Origin: a virus
DNA: 39,244 nucleotides
Direction: 5' to 3' (one strand)
Virus genome (UHGV): UHGV-1357478
Part shown: positions 2,524-11,199 of the stretch, piece after piece
Layout: the number at the start of each line of letters is the position of its first letter
Numbering within the stretch: the stretch's first letter is position 1
The notes under the pieces: generated by a model
Databases searched by the model: none
What the model saw: only the letters and a program-made list of their open reading frames with translations
Told to the model about the DNA's origin: nothing
Position numbers and translations under genes: made by a program

Positions 2524-4137
2524 GTGGATAATAAATTATTGAACGGTTCTAGGTTTGATAAAGAAGCAAATCTAGTTTATAAAGTACCAGTAAGCAAACT
2601 GCCTACTCGAATAATGCAATATTCGAACGGAGAAAAAGAAGAAGTCGTAGATTTTGAGCATCAGGATGTTTTTAATATGATTGTAAAATTTGTCCGACAT
2701 CATAAAGAAAAACAAGTTCCTCGCCTTAAAGAATTAAAGCGTTATTCTTTAGCACAAAATAATATTAAGTTTACTGAAGATAAAAGTGAAAATCGAGCAG
2801 ACAACAAGATTGCAAACGATTGGGCTAGATTTATTGTCAATTTTAAAAAAGGCGTATTACTAGGTAATCCTTTGAAGTACAATGGCGATAAAACTATAGC
2901 TGATAAAATTAATGATTTTTCTAGCAAATCAAATGAAGATTATCATAATCAGTTAATGTTAGACGACTTACTCGTATACGGAAGAGCATTTGAATATATC
3001 GGTAGAGATGAATACGGTAAAGAAATGTTAGCTAAATTCAGTCCAGAAGAAACGTTTATTATTTATGATACAACGACAAACAAAAATTCTGTATGTGCTG
3101 TTCACTGTTATGATCTCGATTTTAACGATGAAACATTTAGTTATATCGATATTTATGCAAATGATGGCTATTTTTATCAACATGAATCAAAAAATCAAGA
3201 CTATGAACAATCTAAATTGATTGATAAATATCAAACTTTCTTTGATTCTATTCAAGTAAATGAATGGATTAACAATGAGGAGCGTTTAGGAGATTTTGAA
3301 ACAGTTTTAGATAATATAGATGCATATGATCTATCGCAATCTTCAATGGCTAATTTCCAACAAGATTCATCTGAAGCTTATTTAGTTATTAAAGGAAACC
3401 CAGAAACTGCTATAGATGATGAAGATGGTAATTCTGCAGTAGACGTTTTAAACGACATGATAAAAGCTAGATTGTTAATCTTAGGAGATAAGAAATATTA
3501 TGGTGATGGCCAAACTGGTAGCGATCCTGATGCATACTACTTGAAAAAAGAGTATGATACACAAGGGACAGAGGCATATAATGACCGTTTGGTTTCTGAT
3601 ATGTTGCGCTTCACTTCTTTAATTGATTTTACCGATGAAAATATTGGGAGTAATCAGTCTGGTATTGGATTTAGATTTAAAGGTTGGGGAAGTGACAATG
3701 ATAGAAAGAACAAAGAAAGAATGGTCAAAAAAGCAATCATGAGAAGACTAAGATTACTAACTTATTCTTGGTCATTGAAAGATAACTTAAATAAACCAAC
3801 AGGGCTTGCTGAGAAAGTTAAGTCTTTTTTTGTATCTAGAGATAATGATAAAGAGCTGCTTTTTGAAAAGGTGAATGCTATAGAGATATTATTCACACCA
3901 AACGTTCCTCAATCAGATAAAGAAATTATGGAAGTTATTGCCGGAATGGTTGGAATTGTTTCAGATGAAACACTTTGCGAAATGGCGGCTAAATTGACTG
4001 GTGTTCCTGTTCAAACAGAACTAAAGAGATTGAAAAAGGAAAATCAGCCAGATACATTATCCGATGAAAATGCAGCGAAGCTTAAAGAAAAACAGGCAGA
4101 ATTTTTGGCGAATCAGTCGGAAACAGAGGAGGACTGA
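2524..4137 (+). CDS. portal protein
   Basis: 537 aa, immediately after terL, acidic C-terminus; matches the canonical order. Confidence 0.7.
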   Translation: MDNKLLNGSRFDKEANLVYKVPVSKLPTRIMQYSNGEKEEVVDFEHQDVFNMIVKFVRHHKEKQVPRLKELKRYSLAQNNIKFTEDKSENRADNKIANDWARFIVNFKKGVLLGNPLKYNGDKTIADKINDFSSKSNEDYHNQLMLDDLLVYGRAFEYIGRDEYGKEMLAKFSPEETFIIYDTTTNKNSVCAVHCYDLDFNDETFSYIDIYANDGYFYQHESKNQDYEQSKLIDKYQTFFDSIQVNEWINNEERLGDFETVLDNIDAYDLSQSSMANFQQDSSEAYLVIKGNPETAIDDEDGNSAVDVLNDMIKARLLILGDKKYYGDGQTGSDPDAYYLKKEYDTQGTEAYNDRLVSDMLRFTSLIDFTDENIGSNQSGIGFRFKGWGSDNDRKNKERMVKKAIMRRLRLLTYSWSLKDNLNKPTGLAEKVKSFFVSRDNDKELLFEKVNAIEILFTPNVPQSDKEIMEVIAGMVGIVSDETLCEMAAKLTGVPVQTELKRLKKENQPDTLSDENAAKLKEKQAEFLANQSETEED

Positions 4138-4142
4138 TTTAG

Positions 4143-5081
4143 ATGTCCTATTTAAAAGATCGTGAAGATGCTTGGATCAAAGAGCAGATGAAGCTAGATC
4201 GTAATAGAGAAAAAGAAATTGTTCAACAGCTTCAAAATGCTATTGATGCGATTCAAACCGAAATTGAAGCTAACTGGGATAGATTTTCCAATGGCCAAAA
4301 GATTACGATTAGCGAAGCAAGAAAAATGGCTAATAAGATGGACGTAAAACGCTTTGAGAGAAAAGCGAAGGAGTATGTAAAAAATAAAGACTTTAGTCCA
4401 CAGGCCAATAAAGAATTGAAAATCTATAACTTAGTAATGCGAGTGTCTAGATTAGAGCTATTAAAGTCTCAAATTGGCTTAGAACTAATCACGTTGTTTG
4501 ATGAGCTAGATAAGTGGGGATATTCTCAGTTAACTGAAGCCGCAAAAGATGAATATTTAAGACAGGCGGGAATACTAGGCGAAACCGTTAAAGAAAATTA
4601 TTCGTCTATGGTTAGAAAAATTGTTAATGCCTCATTCAAATCAAGTGATTTCCCTTCGTTCAGTGATAACATTTGGCAAAATTTTGTTGAAATGAAAGCT
4701 GATTTAGAAAAAATAATTACTCAGGCAATCACTCAAGGTAAAAATCCAAGAGCAGTAGCAAAAGAGATGGCTAAATTTTTAAAGCCTAACCAATTAAATA
4801 TAAGATACAAGCTAAATAGGCTAATGATGACTGAAATATCTGGTATTCAAACAGATATTCAAAAGCAAAGTTACTTGGATGCAGATATCGAAGAATATGA
4901 TTACATTGCAGAACCGTTTGCCTGTGAAATATGTAAAAAAGTGGCTAAAGGAAGCCCTTATAGAGTATTAAAGATGAAAAAAGGTATTAATGCTCCTTAT
5001 ATGCATCCTCATTGTAAATGCTCTACTGTCCCTAAAGTTAGTGAGGATTATGATAAGTCGCTGAAAGAAAGAGGTTTGTAA
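4143..5081 (+). CDS. minor head / head morphogenesis protein (Mu F / SPP1 gp7-like)
   Basis: Position after portal, 312 aa, C-terminal Cys/His cluster (CEICKK...HPHCKC). Confidence 0.6.
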   Translation: MSYLKDREDAWIKEQMKLDRNREKEIVQQLQNAIDAIQTEIEANWDRFSNGQKITISEARKMANKMDVKRFERKAKEYVKNKDFSPQANKELKIYNLVMRVSRLELLKSQIGLELITLFDELDKWGYSQLTEAAKDEYLRQAGILGETVKENYSSMVRKIVNASFKSSDFPSFSDNIWQNFVEMKADLEKIITQAITQGKNPRAVAKEMAKFLKPNQLNIRYKLNRLMMTEISGIQTDIQKQSYLDADIEEYDYIAEPFACEICKKVAKGSPYRVLKMKKGINAPYMHPHCKCSTVPKVSEDYDKSLKERGL

Positions 5082-5351
5082 ATGGATAATCTATATAAAT
5101 GCAATCAATGTCATAAATACACTCCGTTAGTTAGAAAATCTGAAAATATCACGAAGGATATTGAACACCATTATGCTGAATGTGCCAACTGTGGGTATAA
5201 AGCGACAATTATGTATATGAATACCGAAATTAAGTTATTAATGCATGAACAAAGAAAAACAAACTTTGGCACAAAAAAGAAAGGTAAATTGACGGAAAAG
5301 CTAAACAGATTAATTTCTGAATTAAGAAAAGAAGTTGAGGAATCACTTTGA
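5082..5351 (+). CDS. small zinc-ribbon protein
   Basis: CxxC (CNQC)...CxxC (CANC); overlaps the previous stop (TAAATGG). Confidence 0.45.
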   Translation: MDNLYKCNQCHKYTPLVRKSENITKDIEHHYAECANCGYKATIMYMNTEIKLLMHEQRKTNFGTKKKGKLTEKLNRLISELRKEVEESL

Positions 5352-5851: not shown

Positions 5852-6493
5852 ATGAAAACAAAAAAACTATTATTGCCAATGCATTTACAATTCTTTGCTG
5901 ATAATCCAGATACTGGCACTGGGGATACGGACCAACCGGCCGGAGGTCAAGAGCAAACACCGCCAGAAGATGATAGTAAAGATAAAGGCAATGGAAAAAC
6001 GTTTTCTCGTGATGAAGTAGCAAAAATGATTGCTGCTGAAGTATCAAAAACAAAAGAAGCTTGGGAAAAAGAGCTTCAAGAGAAACAAGAAGAAGCTGAT
6101 AAATTAGCCAAAATGAATGATCAGGAGAAAAATGATCATGAAAAGCAGAAGTTACTTGAAAAAATCAAAGAGCTGGAAAGTGCGCAAAACTTAGCTGAAA
6201 TGTCTAAGACTGCTACTACAATGTTTTCTGATAAAGGTATTCAAGCGACTGAGGGATTACTTTCGTTAGTAGTAAAGGAAACAGCAGAGGAGACATCTGA
6301 AAATGTTAAAGCTGTTGTAAAACTTATTGAAACTGAACGTGAAGCGATTAAAGCAGATTTTGAGAAACGAATTGGTTCTAAACTCCCACTTGATGGAAAT
6401 GCTGATGCTAGCTTATCTCGTGGTGCACAAATGGCTAAACAAGCAAATAATCAAAATAAAGCGCCTGAAAATAATCCTTGGGCGACAAATTAG
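5852..6493 (+). CDS. scaffolding protein
   Basis: Acidic, coiled-coil-rich 213 aa directly upstream of the capsid gene; RBS GGAGG. Confidence 0.65.
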   Translation: MKTKKLLLPMHLQFFADNPDTGTGDTDQPAGGQEQTPPEDDSKDKGNGKTFSRDEVAKMIAAEVSKTKEAWEKELQEKQEEADKLAKMNDQEKNDHEKQKLLEKIKELESAQNLAEMSKTATTMFSDKGIQATEGLLSLVVKETAEETSENVKAVVKLIETEREAIKADFEKRIGSKLPLDGNADASLSRGAQMAKQANNQNKAPENNPWATN

Positions 6494-6505: not shown

Positions 6506-6847
6506 ATGGTTTATGTAAAGAAAACTCAAACATATCAAGATATTAATTTTTTAAAGAGCGAAAAATTTATTTCGTTCACAAAACAAGTTGATGAAAAAAC
6601 TGAAGGGGTAGTAAAAGGAGTGTTACCTGCAGGATCAGTGTTCCCTAAAAATGATGCTACAGCAGAAGGTATTACAATTAACGATGTTGATGTATCAAAT
6701 GGACCACAACCGGTAGGAGTAATTGTTGAAGGTCATGTTCTTATTAAACGATTACCAGTTGAACCATCATCGGAAGCTCAAAAAGCAATGCGTGAAGTTA
6801 AATTTTATGATGCAAACGGTAAAATGCTAGCAGTTCCAACTGCTTAA
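6506..6847 (+). CDS. hypothetical head protein
   Basis: 113 aa between scaffold and major capsid; RBS AGGAGG. Confidence 0.45.
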   Translation: MVYVKKTQTYQDINFLKSEKFISFTKQVDEKTEGVVKGVLPAGSVFPKNDATAEGITINDVDVSNGPQPVGVIVEGHVLIKRLPVEPSSEAQKAMREVKFYDANGKMLAVPTA

Positions 6848-6869
6848 TAAATAATTAGGAGGATTTCAA

Positions 6870-7883
6870 ATGGCAAATATTGCAGAATTATTTTCACAGA
6901 AAAATGTATTAGATTATGTAAATAATCGTCAAGCACCAGTTTTATTAGGAGAAACATTGTTTCCAGCACGTAAGGTACAGGGGTTAGAGTTTGATGTTTT
7001 AAAAGCGGGATCTAAAATCCCAACAATTGCAAGCGTTCATGCATTCGATACAGAAGCTGAGATTGCTTCACGTGTTGGATCAAAGACAGCTCAAGAGCTG
7101 GCGTTCATCAAACGTAAGATTCAATTAAAAGAAAAAGATTTAATGGCTTTACGCAAGCCTCGTGATGCAGCAGAACAACGTTTTTTAGAACAAGAAGTGT
7201 ACAACGATGTAGATGCAATGGTTGGATCTGTAAATGCGCGTGTTGAAAAGATGCGAATGGAAGTATTAGCAAATGGTAAAGTAACGTTAGATGAAAATGG
7301 GTTAGATTTAGTAGTTGATTATGGTGTGCCAGAAGATCATAAAGGTACTGCTGATTTTTCTGCTCCTGATACAGACATCATTGGGTTATTAACAGAATGG
7401 GCAAGCAAGTTGGATGTAATGCCAACACGCATTTTGACATCTACTAAAGTGCGTAACGCAATCTTGAAAAACGACGGAATCAAGGCATTCTTTAAAACTT
7501 CTGGTTTGTTACCAAATGTTGGCTCGTTAAACCAAATGTTACAACAATTTAATTTACCGACAATTGTGACATATGATGCAAAATATAATAAAGAAAACGC
7601 TGAAGGTGTACTAGTAAAAGAACGTTATTTCCCAGAAAACAAGCTAGTCATGTTTGGGGATGAAAACCCAGGAGAGTCTATTTTCGGTGTAACACCAGAA
7701 GAATCTCGTTTGTTATCAACTGGATCAAATAACTACACAGTAGGCAATATTTTCGCAATGGTATACGAATCTAATTTAGACCCAGTTGGAACATGGACTA
7801 AAGCATCAGGAACAGCTCTACCAAGTTTCCCAGAAGCTGACAATGTATTCCAAGCTACTGTCTTACCTGATTCAAAAAAATAG
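6870..7883 (+). CDS. major capsid protein
   Basis: 337 aa after the scaffold; strong RBS AGGAGG. The 3' end carries a candidate -1 frameshift extension to 7945. Confidence 0.65.
   Translation: MANIAELFSQKNVLDYVNNRQAPVLLGETLFPARKVQGLEFDVLKAGSKIPTIASVHAFDTEAEIASRVGSKTAQELAFIKRKIQLKEKDLMALRKPRDAAEQRFLEQEVYNDVDAMVGSVNARVEKMRMEVLANGKVTLDENGLDLVVDYGVPEDHKGTADFSAPDTDIIGLLTEWASKLDVMPTRILTSTKVRNAILKNDGIKAFFKTSGLLPNVGSLNQMLQQFNLPTIVTYDAKYNKENAEGVLVKERYFPENKLVMFGDENPGESIFGVTPEESRLLSTGSNNYTVGNIFAMVYESNLDPVGTWTKASGTALPSFPEADNVFQATVLPDSKK
7874..7880 (+). other. candidate -1 ribosomal frameshift site, A_AAA_AAA abutting UAG
   Basis: tcA AAA AAA TAG at the capsid 3' end. The -1 frame is open 7871..7945 and encodes ...KIEAPKVESVIPTTDGASIVLS*. 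A stem (gccccg/cggggc) begins 5 nt downstream. Confidence 0.5.
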
Positions 7884-7956
7884 AAGCCCCGAAAGTTGAA
7901 AGTGTAATACCAACAACTGACGGGGCCTCAATTGTATTAAGTTAGGTGGTGTTTAA

Positions 7957-8289
7957 ATGCCTAGCATTACAGATGACATAACAAAACTGTTAAATAGTCC
8001 AGCTAATGAAAAGTTAGAAGTGATTGAGCGACGAACTAGAGAACGTCTCAATAGTTTGTTAAATGTATCGGAAACGCCAAGCAAATTTGATTCGATTATA
8101 TACGAGGTCGTTTTAAAAAGATTTAACCGGATTGGTCAAGAGGGTATGATTTCATATTCTCAAGAAGGTTTAACAATGGCCTTTCCTGATTCTGATTTCT
8201 CTGAATATGAAAAACAAATTAACGATTATTTGAATGAAGAAAAAGAAGTGCAATATAAAAAACTTCGTGGAAAGGCCCGATTCGTATGA
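7957..8289 (+). CDS. head-tail connector (gp6-like)
   Basis: 110 aa, position. Confidence 0.5.
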   Translation: MPSITDDITKLLNSPANEKLEVIERRTRERLNSLLNVSETPSKFDSIIYEVVLKRFNRIGQEGMISYSQEGLTMAFPDSDFSEYEKQINDYLNEEKEVQYKKLRGKARFV

Positions 8290-8621
8290 GATATACAGAT
8301 GAAATTACCTTTGTAAAAAAATCTTCAGAATCGCATTATGATCCAAACTCAGGGGAATGGATTGAAGAAGAACCGTTTAGAAAAACTACTGATGTCAATG
8401 TAACTGATATTGGTACAGATCGTTCTATTACTATTTTCGGAAGCATTAAAGAAGGGGCTAAAGTCATTAGGACACAGCCCCTTTTTGTTATTCCAGAATT
8501 TGATTACATTGAGTTTGAGGGTAAAGCTTGGGAAGTTATTACAAGTAGAGTTCCTGCATTAAGAAATAGCTTGATTATTCAGGAAGTGATTATTGATGGC
8601 AAGAAGTCAAGTAAGAATTAA
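8286..8621 (+). CDS. head closure / head-tail adaptor
   Basis: 111 aa; overlaps the previous stop. Confidence 0.5.
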   Translation: MRYTDEITFVKKSSESHYDPNSGEWIEEEPFRKTTDVNVTDIGTDRSITIFGSIKEGAKVIRTQPLFVIPEFDYIEFEGKAWEVITSRVPALRNSLIIQEVIIDGKKSSKN

Positions 8622-8976
8622 TGGATTAGCTGGAATTTCTAAAAAACTAAAGAGAAATGCTCAACTTGATGATGTGAAAAAAGTTGTTAGAAATAACACA
8701 GCAGAATTAACCGCCAATATGCAAGCTGAAGCCGGAAAGGTGTTAACTGGACATCGGGAAGGTAAAAAGTTTGTTAAACCAACTGGGGCAACAAAAAGAA
8801 GTATCGTTATGAGGCTTTCGAACAATGGTTTTTCTGGGCATACAGGACCAGGAACAGAATACGCACCATACTTAATACACGGAACAAGATTCATGGTGAA
8901 ACGTGATTTCTTTTTACCACCGCTGAAACAACAAAAAGTGAAATTTAGAACGGACTTGGAAAGGTTGATGAAATGA
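8593..8976 (+). CDS. tail component (HK97 gp10-like)
   Basis: 127 aa, position. Confidence 0.45.
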
Positions 8977-9362
8977 TTAAAACAAGAGATCAATCAATCT
9001 TCGATGAAGTGTATAAGAAGTGTCAATCACTGGGTTATGAAATTTACGATTATAAACCTATGAATGATGTAGGTTATCCATTTGTCGAATTAGAAGATAC
9101 TCAGACACTGCACCAAGCCAACAAGACTGATATTAAAGGTTCGGTTATATTGAATCTATCTGTATGGGGATTGGCAAAAAAACGTAAACAAATATCGGAT
9201 ATGGCTTCAGCAATTTTTGCTGAGGCTCTATCTATTTCTGAAACGGAAGGTTATCATTGGTCGCTTAATATTCAATCAAGCGGTATTCGGGTAGTAGATG
9301 ACATTTCGACTAACACACCATTGAAGCGGGCAATGATATCTTTAGAATTCAAAATACTATAG
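8973..9362 (+). CDS. tail completion protein
   Basis: 129 aa, ATGA overlap, precedes the major tail gene. Confidence 0.45.
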
Positions 9363-9377
9363 AGAGAAGGAATATAA

Positions 9378-9908
9378 ATGGCTAATGAAGCAAAAGTAGC
9401 GGCTAAAGGTATTGATATTATTTTACTTTTCCGTTTGTTAAAAAAATCAAAAGAGGAAGCAGCATGGAAATTAGCTTTCCAGACAGAACATGAAAATACA
9501 AAAACAAAAGATAGTGATTCTGTGGCCACTAAAGATGGTCCGATTCGCATCCCAGGATCATTGGAAATTGATTTTTCGGCAACATCTATTTTATCAGTCG
9601 GTGATCCGTATGTTGACCAGCTAGAAGAAGCTTTAGACAATGACGATATTATTGAAATCTGGGAAATCAACAAAGCAGAAAAAGGCACAGGAGATAATGC
9701 TGACAAATACAAGGCAACCTATTACCAAGGATATGTAACATCATTTGGTAAATCGCCTAATGCTGAAGACACCGTAGAAGTTTCATTAGAATTTGGTATC
9801 AATGGTAAAGGTGCAAAAGGATTTGCAACATTAACTGCTGATCAAGAAGAAGTAGTTCAATATGTCTTCAAAGATACGACTATTGAAACAGCTGATCCGG
9901 GAAAGTAG
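9378..9908 (+). CDS. major tail protein
   Basis: 176 aa, position. The 3' end carries a candidate -1 frameshift extension to 9970. Confidence 0.65.
   Translation: MANEAKVAAKGIDIILLFRLLKKSKEEAAWKLAFQTEHENTKTKDSDSVATKDGPIRIPGSLEIDFSATSILSVGDPYVDQLEEALDNDDIIEIWEINKAEKGTGDNADKYKATYYQGYVTSFGKSPNAEDTVEVSLEFGINGKGAKGFATLTADQEEVVQYVFKDTTIETADPGK
9899..9905 (+). other. candidate -1 ribosomal frameshift site, G_GGA_AAG abutting UAG
   Basis: ccG GGA AAG TAG. The -1 frame is open 9896..9970 and encodes ...GKVDSPYVGSVTPTVDGASIELS*. A stem (agccc/gggct) begins 5 nt downstream. Confidence 0.5.
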
Positions 9909-9985
9909 ACAGCCCTTATGTGGGAAGTGTAACTCCTACAGTCGATGGGGCTTCTATTGAATTAAGCTAAGAAAGGAAAATAAAT

Positions 9986-10444
9986 ATGGTGGATACTTTT
10001 AAAATTTATAAAGGCCAAACCGAAGTTGTTTCCGGCACATCACCTTTAACTATAACAGGAATGGAACCTAACACCTCTGTGCCAGTTGGTGAGTACCAAG
10101 TAACTCGTGTTGTTAATGGGAAAGAATCAGAGCGAGTAGATATTCCAGCTTTTAAAACATTGTCTATTGCTGTAACTGGCTTAGAGTTTTCTCCTAAAAC
10201 ATCAACAGCAGATGCGGGTACTGCAGGTAGCCGACAAATCACAGCAACTGTCTTGCCTGAAAATGCAACCAACAAAAAAGTAACCTATAAGATTACGCCT
10301 GAAACAGAAGGTCTTGCTGTCTCTGAAACAGGAAATATTACTTGGACAGAAGCGGTACCGGCTGGTGTTTATACCACAACAGGAACAACAGAGGATGGTA
10401 AAAAAACAGCTCAACACACCTTAACATTGAATAATCAAGCTTAA
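9986..10444 (+). CDS. Ig-like (Big_2-type) domain protein, tail/virion surface
   Basis: Thr/Val-rich beta-rich sequence typical of bacterial Ig-like domains; RBS AAGGAAA. Confidence 0.55.
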   Translation: MVDTFKIYKGQTEVVSGTSPLTITGMEPNTSVPVGEYQVTRVVNGKESERVDIPAFKTLSIAVTGLEFSPKTSTADAGTAGSRQITATVLPENATNKKVTYKITPETEGLAVSETGNITWTEAVPAGVYTTTGTTEDGKKTAQHTLTLNNQA

Positions 10445-10456
10445 AATAAAATTTAG

Positions 10457-10486
10457 AGGGCAGCTTAGCGGCTGTCCTTTTCTTAT
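10457..10486 (+). terminator. intra-operon terminator / attenuator
   Basis: Stem gggcagc/gctgtcc followed by a TTTTCTT run, after the Ig-like gene. Confidence 0.45.
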
Positions 10487-10498
10487 GGAGGAAAAGAC

Positions 10499-10849
10499 AT
10501 GCAAATCGAAATTAAAGGGAAAAAATATAACTGTATTTTTGGAGTCAAGTTTATTCGTGAATTGGATAAGCAGCATGGGGTAGTTCGTAATGATGTGAAT
10601 CTTGGTATGGGACTAACAACTTTATTACCGCAGCTAGTAAGTGGAAATATCGTTGTTCTATCTTATGTACTTTACACAGCTACCATTACGGAAAAAAGTA
10701 GACCTTCTAAGGATGAAGTAGATGAGTTTGTTGAAACTGTTGATGATATTGAGGCGTTATTTGATGAAACGTTGAAAAACTTAGAAGAAAGCAATGCGGG
10801 AAAGTTAACGGTCAGAAATTTCAAGAAAGCTCTGATGGAGAACAAGTAA
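10499..10849 (+). CDS. tail assembly chaperone (gpG-like)
   Basis: 116 aa immediately upstream of the tape measure gene. Confidence 0.65.
   Translation: MQIEIKGKKYNCIFGVKFIRELDKQHGVVRNDVNLGMGLTTLLPQLVSGNIVVLSYVLYTATITEKSRPSKDEVDEFVETVDDIEALFDETLKNLEESNAGKLTVRNFKKALMENK
10798..10804 (+). other. -1 programmed frameshift site G_GGA_AAG (G -> G-T fusion)
   Basis: Heptamer in the G frame. The -1 frame is open from 10768 through 11199. Confidence 0.6.
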
Positions 10850-11199
10850 GAGAGGAACTAACCTCAGCTGAAGCTTATGAAAATATTCTTATTAATTGTT
10901 TTCGTTACCTAGAAATTACTGATTTATCAGAAATTGAACGAATGACTTTGTATGAATATGAAGTTAGGCTATTGGCGTTTCAGTTAAAAAGACTTGACCA
11001 TGAAAGAGACCTCTATCTTCAATCTTGGCTAAATAACCAAATTAAGGCGACTAAAGGTAAAAAATCCGAACCTTATTATAAGGAATTCAATAAGTTTTTC
11101 AATTATGAAGAACGAGAGAAGCTTATTTTGGGTAAATCATTAATTGATGAAAAAGTTGATATAGGAGCAATTGATTTATTAAGAAAAGCAAATAAGTAG
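10801..11199 (+). CDS. gpT-like part of the G-T chaperone (by -1 frameshift from 10499)
   Basis: -1 frame relative to G. Conserved arrangement upstream of the tape measure gene. Confidence 0.55.
   Translation, partial: KVNGQKFQESSDGEQVREELTSAEAYENILINCFRYLEITDLSEIERMTLYEYEVRLLAFQLKRLDHERDLYLQSWLNNQIKATKGKKSEPYYKEFNKFFNYEEREKLILGKSLIDEKVDIGAIDLLRKANK

Follow-up and report, generated by a model that had tools for sequence, protein, structure and literature searches.

A frameshift-encoded tag on phage capsid and tail tube proteins as a probable split-domain docking site for a separate Ig-like protein

In the virus genome UHGV-1357478, a stretch of 39,244 nucleotides referred to here as the window, the genes for the major capsid protein and the tail tube protein each end at a slippery heptamer beyond which a -1-frame extension of 21 residues is encoded, and the two extensions are versions of one peptide, the tag. 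We consider it probable that this frameshift tag on capsid and tube is a split-domain docking site for the immunoglobulin (Ig)-like protein of 152 amino acids (aa) encoded at 9986..10444. Docking of that protein was one of the roles suggested in an initial annotation of this DNA, and among the readings weighed below it is the best supported by sequence comparison, because the tag and the N-terminal domain of the protein (the N-domain) co-occur almost perfectly and, as unsplit relatives indicate, are two halves of one domain. We rate at slightly better than even a broader proposal, namely that Gram-positive phages possess a natural modular tag-and-catcher system with a tunable recoded tag, a free catcher, interchangeable cargo and chains formed via tags on the cargo. 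Window positions 6800-10500 are 97.4% identical to Enterococcus faecalis phage phiEf11, and the window phage is phiEf11-like. Its genes run in the order scaffold, small head protein, major capsid protein, head-tail connectors, tail tube, 152-aa protein, chaperones and tape measure. The features in question are as follows.

6870..7883, + strand: major capsid protein gene, 337 aa, 0 frame (Pfam Phage_cap_E, E 4.6e-37), corresponding to phiEf11 ORF10 (ORF, open reading frame)
7874..7880, + strand: slippery heptamer A_AAA_AAA in register with the capsid frame, then TAG at 7881-7883; read from the sequence and proposed earlier for phiEf11 (PMC5221750)
7880..7945, + strand: -1-frame capsid extension, that is, the tag IEAPKVESVIPTTDGASIVLS and a stop; E ~1e-11 with the tag hidden Markov model (HMM) for the identical phiEf11 tag
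7886..7926, + strand: two-tier RNA hairpin, 5 nucleotides (nt) after the capsid heptamer, outer stem GCCCCG/CGGGGC; minimum free energy (MFE) -18.4 kcal/mol, z -2.0 versus shuffles
9378..9908, + strand: tail tube protein gene, 176 aa, 0 frame (Pfam Phage_tail_2, E 7.4e-18)
9899..9905, + strand: slippery heptamer G_GGA_AAG in register with the tube frame, then TAG at 9906-9908; read from the sequence
9905..9970, + strand: -1-frame tube extension, that is, the tag VDSPYVGSVTPTVDGASIELS and a stop; fused in frame in phiEf11 and in related loci L025 and L212
9911..9952, + strand: two-tier RNA hairpin, 5 nt after the tube heptamer, outer stem AGCCCU/GGGGCU; MFE -17.9 kcal/mol, z -2.9 versus synonymous recodings
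9986..10444, + strand: 152-aa protein gene with a Big_2 domain, adjoining the tube gene on its 3' side
9986..10159, + strand: N-domain of the 152-aa protein, fibronectin type III (FN3)-like without strands A and B (the catcher); in every homologue the first residues of the protein already belong to it
10169..10417, + strand: Big_2 Ig-like domain of the 152-aa protein (the cargo), agreeing with the Big_2 profile and fold (Pfam PF02368)

At both window sites the heptamer is in register with the 0 frame, with the capsid gene ending tcA AAA AAA TAG and the tube gene ccG GGA AAG TAG, and a stable structure lies within the spacer range of -1 sites (about 5-9 nt). In Brochothrix phage BtpYZU02 the tube heptamer recurs at both tagged genes, capsid and tube. 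After a slip the capsid protein would end ...SKKIEAPK/VESVIPTTDGASIVLS and the tube protein ...GKVDSPYVGSVTPTVDGASIELS. The 45-nt cores of the two tags (7901-7945 and 9926-9970) read as the initial annotation quoted them and are identical at 33 of 45 nucleotides. Their peptides, SVIPTTDGASIVLS and SVTPTVDGASIELS, share 11 of 14 residues; when all 78,406 fourteen-residue windows in the six-frame translation of the window were compared with the capsid tag, the next-best match reached 7 of 14. The annotation was also right that the nucleotide differences fall mostly at third codon positions of the -1 frame (8 of 12). By the Nei-Gojobori method, seven changes are synonymous and four non-synonymous, the twelfth difference being TAG versus TAA. 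The common architecture it described is likewise present: the heptamer runs into UAG, a stem starts 5 nt beyond the heptamer, and the (C/U)GGGGC that encodes D-G-A forms the 3' arm of the stem. Its estimate of a tag of ~14 aa holds for the shared core and not for the length, as the full extensions have 21 residues and their likeness continues upstream of the core (xxxPxVxS). Across phages the consensus is V-x-S/A-P-x-V-x-x-V-T-P-T-T-D-G-A-x-I-x-L-x. The tube extension and the next ORF (9986) share one frame, and a lone TAA (9968-9970) stands between them.

A close relationship between tag and N-domain emerged from sequence searches. In libraries of 5.8 billion and 1.84 billion proteins the N-domain invariably starts within residues 1-3 of its protein, and no match of the N-domain search among the 5.8 billion proteins covered the tag. 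An exhaustive HMMER search with the fused tag and N-domain sequence of the window recovered unsplit copies in five proteins (P0236, P0253, P0257, P0278 and P0261), aligned from query residue 3-7 to 79-80, across the junction, with E from 3.7e-19 (P0236) to 8.7e-7. By BLASTP, P0257 is 42% identical over query residues 4-80, and PYVGSVTPTVDGASIEL is aligned to PTIESVTPTEDGAVVIV. The intact copies carry 5-7 additional loop residues located exactly at the tag/N-domain junction. P0236 has a truncated copy at its N-terminus, then two intact copies, and its gene is preceded by a tube-like ORF with an in-frame tag end, ...VTVPTVDSVTPTTDGALIELS and a stop. Truncated copies begin exactly after the tag segment and so lack strands that their intact homologues possess. 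The register of Pfam fn3 matches is similar, starting in family members at profile positions 32-41 and ending at ~62-86. P0033 matches fn3 above the cut-off (26.3 bits, E 8.8e-6) over profile positions 36-83 only, and weaker matches in the same register occur in TexasRanger, GH15 ORF149 and ORF150, P0253, P0257 and P0236. As far as sequence comparison can tell, these data show that tag, short loop and N-domain make up one ~85-residue FN3-like domain that is intact elsewhere. A profile search against Protein Data Bank sequences gave no match, and thus no solved structure contains the tag/N-domain module.

The distribution of tag and N-domain was examined in ~210 related loci, retrieved by searching with the tube protein and with the 152-aa protein and then scanned with a small tag HMM. 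The collection comprises 77 unique tags and 62 unique ORFs. Among non-redundant complete loci, all 60 with an N-domain have tags, and the HMM finds two tags in 55 of them. In four more (L144, L197, L206 and L207) a divergent second tag was recognized by eye. The sole true single-tag locus, L104, has a capsid tag only. Just upstream of its tube gene lies a gene for a 353-aa protein that we read, from position and size only, as a tail sheath; a sheath would cover the tube. A review makes the same point, that Ig domains would clash with sheaths (PMC8718954). None of 51 loci without an N-domain is tagged, though their tube proteins are 63-84% identical to that of the window. These untagged relatives have no 152-aa gene; directly behind their tube gene come a terminator-like hairpin and the chaperone gene. 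The single apparent exception to the pairing, L142 (~4935-5200), has both tags intact, and a frameshift interrupts its partner gene; the contig was misassembled there or the gene has recently become a pseudogene.

Gene position follows the tag as well. The N-domain gene starts 0-40 nt past the stop codon of a tag in 131 of 134 loci, and lies 3' of the tube gene in Enterococcus and Brochothrix phages and 3' of the capsid gene in the Bacillaceae loci examined (L084-L087, L089 and L090), Efquatrovirus and Lactobacillus phage SA-C12. The part beyond the N-domain differs between proteins and may consist of one or two Big_2 or He_PIG domains, Thr-rich linkers, a non-Ig region or a complete fn3 domain; it is missing from the cargo-less 66-aa protein of Efquatrovirus that is annotated 'major tail protein'. 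Such variation is what one would expect of an anchor module whose cargo can be exchanged. In some partners, long Thr-rich mucin-like tracts (TTTTTKPTTTTT...) replace the Ig domain (L090 ~4974-5342 and other metagenome loci), and the non-Ig region of one partner begins SRETLIQAIDGASAGDTINIDGG. Of 50,697 phage records, 578 (~1%) have a detectable N-domain, among them those of phages K, Sb-1 and phi12 and of the genus Efquatrovirus.

A more elaborate arrangement is found in the Kayvirus GH15 (L208 1910-3318), where ORF148 has an in-frame tag end, ORF149 consists of an N-domain, Big_2 and a C-terminal tag, and ORF150 is an N-domain alone. There are thus two tags and two catchers, and each tag stands directly before an N-domain gene. 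ORF148-150 look like a daisy chain of split domains. Their place in the genome is not in the structural module but between genes for a sigma factor and an exonuclease.

Tags are reached by several recoding routes in phages of Enterococcus, Bacillaceae, Brochothrix, Lactobacillus and Staphylococcus. The route is a -1 shift for 60 of 64 unique tags, at six heptamer types that include xxG_GGG_GAG-stop (the commonest), G_GGA_AAG, A_AAA_AAA, G_GGA_AAT/C and C_CCA_AAA. At the xxG GGG GAG TAA sites (L084-L090 and many metagenome loci) the G-run could pair with CCCC just downstream, and a single P-site slip on G_GGG might operate there. Shifts of +1 at CCC-stop are found in Efquatrovirus (TexasRanger, IME-EF4) and the S. 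aureus siphophage IMEP5; each of these three phages uses a +1 shift for both tags, at a CCC beside the stop or close to it (L207, TexasRanger, at 3493-3818 and 5873-5940; L210, IME-EF4; L211, IMEP5, at 617 and 4424). In the IMEP5 record the tube gene and its neighbors are present in two copies (L211 2168-4424), which looks like an assembly duplication. Lactobacillus phage SA-C12 has a +1-frame tag after a capsid gene ending AAT-TAA. Finally, tags are fused in frame in the tube proteins of phiEf11, L025 and L212 and in GH15 ORF148. One extra base brings the tag into frame in the phiEf11 tube gene (L001 4079..4672; ...DDPEKVDSPSVESVTPTFDGASTELS), and L025 (~4501-5094) acquired a second, independent in-frame fusion in the same manner, so every tube subunit would be tagged in these two phages. 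The phiEf11 tube protein runs at 28-30 kDa and is predicted at 21.5 kDa (PMC5221750).

The proteins that carry tags form 13 BLAST clusters, at least 10 of unrelated capsid proteins and 3 of tube proteins, and cover at least four capsid families, among them Phage_cap_E, Phage_capsid, Phage_capsid_4 and Gp13-like, and two tube families, Phage_tail_2 and Phage_TTP_1. EFC-1 and IME197, for instance, have an unrelated capsid of the Phage_capsid family, still with a -1-frame tag (VTSPVVGKVTPTTNGATIELT). Judged by these comparisons, the tag is portable between unrelated carriers.

The docking explanation that we favor would work as follows. A fraction of ribosomes would slip back one base on the heptamer just before the capsid or tube stop codon, aided by the hairpin 5 nt downstream, and shifted ribosomes would append the 21-residue tag. 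The tag would supply strands A and B of the ~85-residue FN3-like domain, with strands C to G supplied by the N-terminal 58 residues of the protein encoded at 9986..10444. This free protein would dock on tagged capsid and tube subunits by non-covalent beta-strand complementation, its fold being completed by the tag. One small gene could thereby decorate head and tail, at a density set by frameshift efficiency, and tags on cargo proteins would allow chains such as the one predicted for Kayvirus ORF148, ORF149 and ORF150. By analogy with other phage Ig-like domains, the decoration may serve weak adhesion to cell-wall or mucosal glycans.

Several observations weigh against docking. AlphaFold2 (AF2), run on tag plus ORF, assigned the tag a predicted local distance difference test score (pLDDT) of 43-50 and did not dock it confidently, the underlying alignment having little depth outside the ORF; from the fused sequence alone AF2 produced a model of low quality (pLDDT 57). 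The window N-domain, alone or with the tag, has no significant match to Pfam fn3 (PF00041), and an hhalign comparison with five classical FN3 domains (approximate sequences) was weak (P 0.002) and confined to the E-F region. In phiEf11, mass spectrometry found no extension peptides, and the gel did not cover the size of ORF16 (PMC5221750). The commonest slip site of relatives, G_GGG_GAG, is non-canonical and does not follow X_XXY_YYZ. Co-occurrence could in part result from inheritance of tag and N-domain as one block rather than from functional coupling. The physical docking, its geometry and its purpose are inferred.

The AF2 model with the low-confidence tag predicts the N-domain itself at a pLDDT above 90. 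It places the conserved SPLTITG segment, the would-be strand E and partner of strand B, outside any sheet. This is expected if the A-B sheet is missing, yet with the tag at low confidence the model does not demonstrate docking. Virions of phiEf11 contain two capsid bands, of 41 and 38 kDa, both ORF10 (PMC5221750). In purified lysate of vB_EfaS-271, a 7-kDa protein consisting of the N-domain only was abundant and identified with 94% coverage (PMC7503890). Published proteomics are thus compatible with a tag-and-catcher model, short of proof.

The tags might instead function alone, as strands that clasp neighboring subunits or as ligands of the host surface, with the Ig-like protein binding otherwise or not at all. 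The undocked tag in AF2, the high confidence of the N-domain without it and the presence of the tag on every phiEf11 tube subunit would suit this explanation. We nonetheless judge it unlikely: complete loci never have tags without an N-domain gene, nor the reverse; tag and N-domain are halves of one domain; and GH15 has as many tags as N-domain proteins, with each tag directly ahead of an N-domain gene.

The window and other loci from Enterococcus and Brochothrix have tag and ORF in one frame with a single stop between them, an arrangement that would permit a second recoding event (readthrough of the TAA at 9968-9970, or a hop) to produce a cis fusion of tube, FN3 and Ig domains like SPP1 gp17.1*. 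Such a fusion is very improbable, because the frames of tag and ORF differ in Bacillaceae loci and every partner ORF has its own start codon and Shine-Dalgarno-like motif. The capsid tag of the window has no ORF behind it, two very large protein libraries hold no predicted protein joining carrier, tag and N-domain, and the 7-kDa protein detected by mass spectrometry is free (PMC7503890). Read-through fusion of tag and ORF was rejected on the Bacillaceae frames.

Whether the tags do anything at all bears on a further explanation, that they are functionless, tolerated leftovers of a longer frameshift extension cut by a stop codon. Intact relatives exist, and the split probably did arise when a cis FN3-Ig extension acquired an internal stop codon and a new start. 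Substitution patterns make functionless leftovers a very doubtful proposition. Among 62 unique tag cores, pairwise differences at codon positions 1, 2 and 3 are 0.29, 0.19 and 0.56, and the ratio of non-synonymous to synonymous differences (pN/pS) is 0.40 in the tag frame versus 1.01 and 1.56 in the other frames, so that at -1 sites the shifted frame is conserved and under purifying selection. Varied slip sites in both directions have been maintained over many genera and carrier families, and tags are kept after capsid genes that have no downstream remnant. The comparisons show the tags to be translated and selected, in agreement with the claim of the initial annotation that selection acts on the encoded peptide, which is kept across -1, +1 and in-frame versions.

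The RNA, too, is constrained. All 59 of the -1 tags tested fold more stably than synonymous recodings (200 per peptide), with a mean MFE of -13.9 versus -8.2 kcal/mol and a mean z of -2.1, and a near-identical capsid-tag region in related loci has a hairpin z of ~-3.0 to -3.6 versus synonymous recodings; these z-scores come from mutually related sequences and are descriptive rather than independent tests. The tag Gly codon is GGG in 59 of 62 tags, while the remaining four-fold sites vary freely, and the base before the tag Pro codon is C in every tag inspected. From such data the hairpin is shown to be under selection alongside the peptide, which makes the tag stretch dual-coding. That conservation concerns RNA alone (a terminator, attenuator or frameshift stimulator), with peptide likeness as a by-product, would account for the uniformly stable hairpins, the GGG and the C, but is scarcely credible and largely refuted by the comparative data, since third codon positions vary most and pN/pS is low in the tag frame only, +1-shift and in-frame tags keep the peptide with different nucleotides, and Brochothrix tags and the L197 capsid tag keep the peptide pattern with the GGGG stem absent. 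The outcome that the initial annotation had named as pointing to RNA, conserved stem-loops over a drifting peptide, is therefore not what relatives display; both are conserved.

The proposed docking resembles known cases in which a strand-lacking Ig-like fold is completed by a peptide of another polypeptide, as in donor-strand complementation of chaperone-usher pili and in SpyTag/SpyCatcher. Chaperone-usher pili donate one strand; here two strands, forming an A-B hairpin, would be donated, and complementation is predicted. Unlike in SpyTag/SpyCatcher, nothing here points to a covalent isopeptide bond. We considered and rejected a SpyTag-like bond: the tag Asp is not invariant, some tags having Asn, Ser or Gly in its place, and only ~3 kDa separates the two capsid bands of phiEf11, so that a covalent link between tag and catcher is unlikely. 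Specific co-evolution of tag and catcher was also set aside: where unrelated capsids accompany a nearly identical catcher, the tags, read by eye, are no more alike than those of different genera.

Frameshift extensions of capsid and tail proteins, and display of Ig or FN3 domains by frameshift, are established in phages such as SPP1, PSA and A2. Capsid and tail frameshifts have reportedly been described for Listeria phages PSA, A118 and A500 and Lactobacillus phage A2 (Zimmer 2003, Dorscht 2009, Garcia 2004 and Rodriguez 2005). These phages reportedly also recode both major structural genes at their 3' ends, and the slip motifs C_CCA_AAA (-1) and CCC-stop (+1), the latter reported for PSA, are among the tag sites found here. 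Their extensions are reportedly long, that of A2 being ~85 residues. We know of no shared short tag or trans-acting partner described for the Listeria and A2 extensions, and a tblastn search with the tag-plus-N-domain query found no relative in Listeria phage records.

In SPP1 gp17.1* and other cis Ig/FN3 extensions (Auzat 2008 and Fraser 2006, as cited in PMC8718954 and PMC5221750), a frameshift near the 3' end of the major tail gene likewise equips a sub-stoichiometric share of subunits with an FN3 or Ig-like module, and the displayed domains of this type are thought to bind cell-surface carbohydrate weakly (PMC8718954, PMC5221750). In those cases the shifted frame encodes a whole domain, unlike here, where it encodes strands A and B only, in 21 residues, and the rest of the domain and the Ig cargo come from a separate gene. 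No complete domain is joined in the shifted frame of the window, as the extension stops after 21 residues. The 152-aa protein also recalls T4 Hoc and T5 pb10 (PMC5292684; PMC7602432), as a free protein with Ig-like cargo and an anchoring domain that would bind the capsid exterior. Hoc and pb10 recognize the folded capsid lattice; the anchor proposed here would differ in recognizing a recoded C-terminal peptide, and one anchor would serve capsid and tube at a density set by frameshift efficiency.

A -1 frameshift in phiEf11 ORF10 was proposed in 2016 by Stevens et al. (PMC5221750), for the same gene, AAAAAAA site and 21-residue extension as the window capsid. These authors call the extension speculative because no peptide of it was found by mass spectrometry (PMC5221750). 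In contrast to the present analysis, the identical peptide end of the tube protein ORF15 was not noticed there, and the extension was not linked to ORF16. Full-text searches, which took in few subscription journals, found no earlier account of the shared tag, the tube tag, the split domain or the link to the ORF. The initial annotation was likewise not aware of any description of a short shared peptide; the capsid frameshift alone had been proposed (PMC5221750).

Other features of the region accompany these genes. The chaperone pair downstream (ORFs 10499..10849 and 10942..11199) has a classical G/GT -1 frameshift at G_GGA_AAG (10798-10804), the same heptamer as at the tube site, with the -1 frame entering ORF 10942..11199. 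One late operon thus has three -1 recoding sites (capsid, tube and chaperone) inside ~3 kb. Directly 3' of the 152-aa ORF, at window 10447-10485, lies a GC-rich hairpin with a T-run (gggcagcttagcggctgtccttttctt), absent from a simple terminator scan, which may lower expression of downstream tail genes relative to capsid, tube and decorator. An ORF of 113 aa between the scaffold and capsid genes (6506..6847), annotated 'major head protein' in phiEf11, could be a further head accessory protein.

If docking is confirmed, a purpose will have been found for short frameshift extensions on the capsid and tail proteins of Gram-positive phages. It would also explain the small 'second major tail protein' gene that lies beside these genes and is mis-annotated in hundreds of records. 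The attachment principle would be new, with a recoded peptide completing the fold of a decorator at a stoichiometry set at the ribosome, and the same 40 nucleotides constitute the selected peptide and the shift-stimulating hairpin. Tag/catcher pairs already occur on many unrelated capsid and tube families, and the therapeutic phages K and Sb-1 carry the catcher domain. A tag of ~20 residues and a catcher of ~58 residues would, if the proposal is correct, provide a display handle for therapeutic Enterococcus and Staphylococcus phages.

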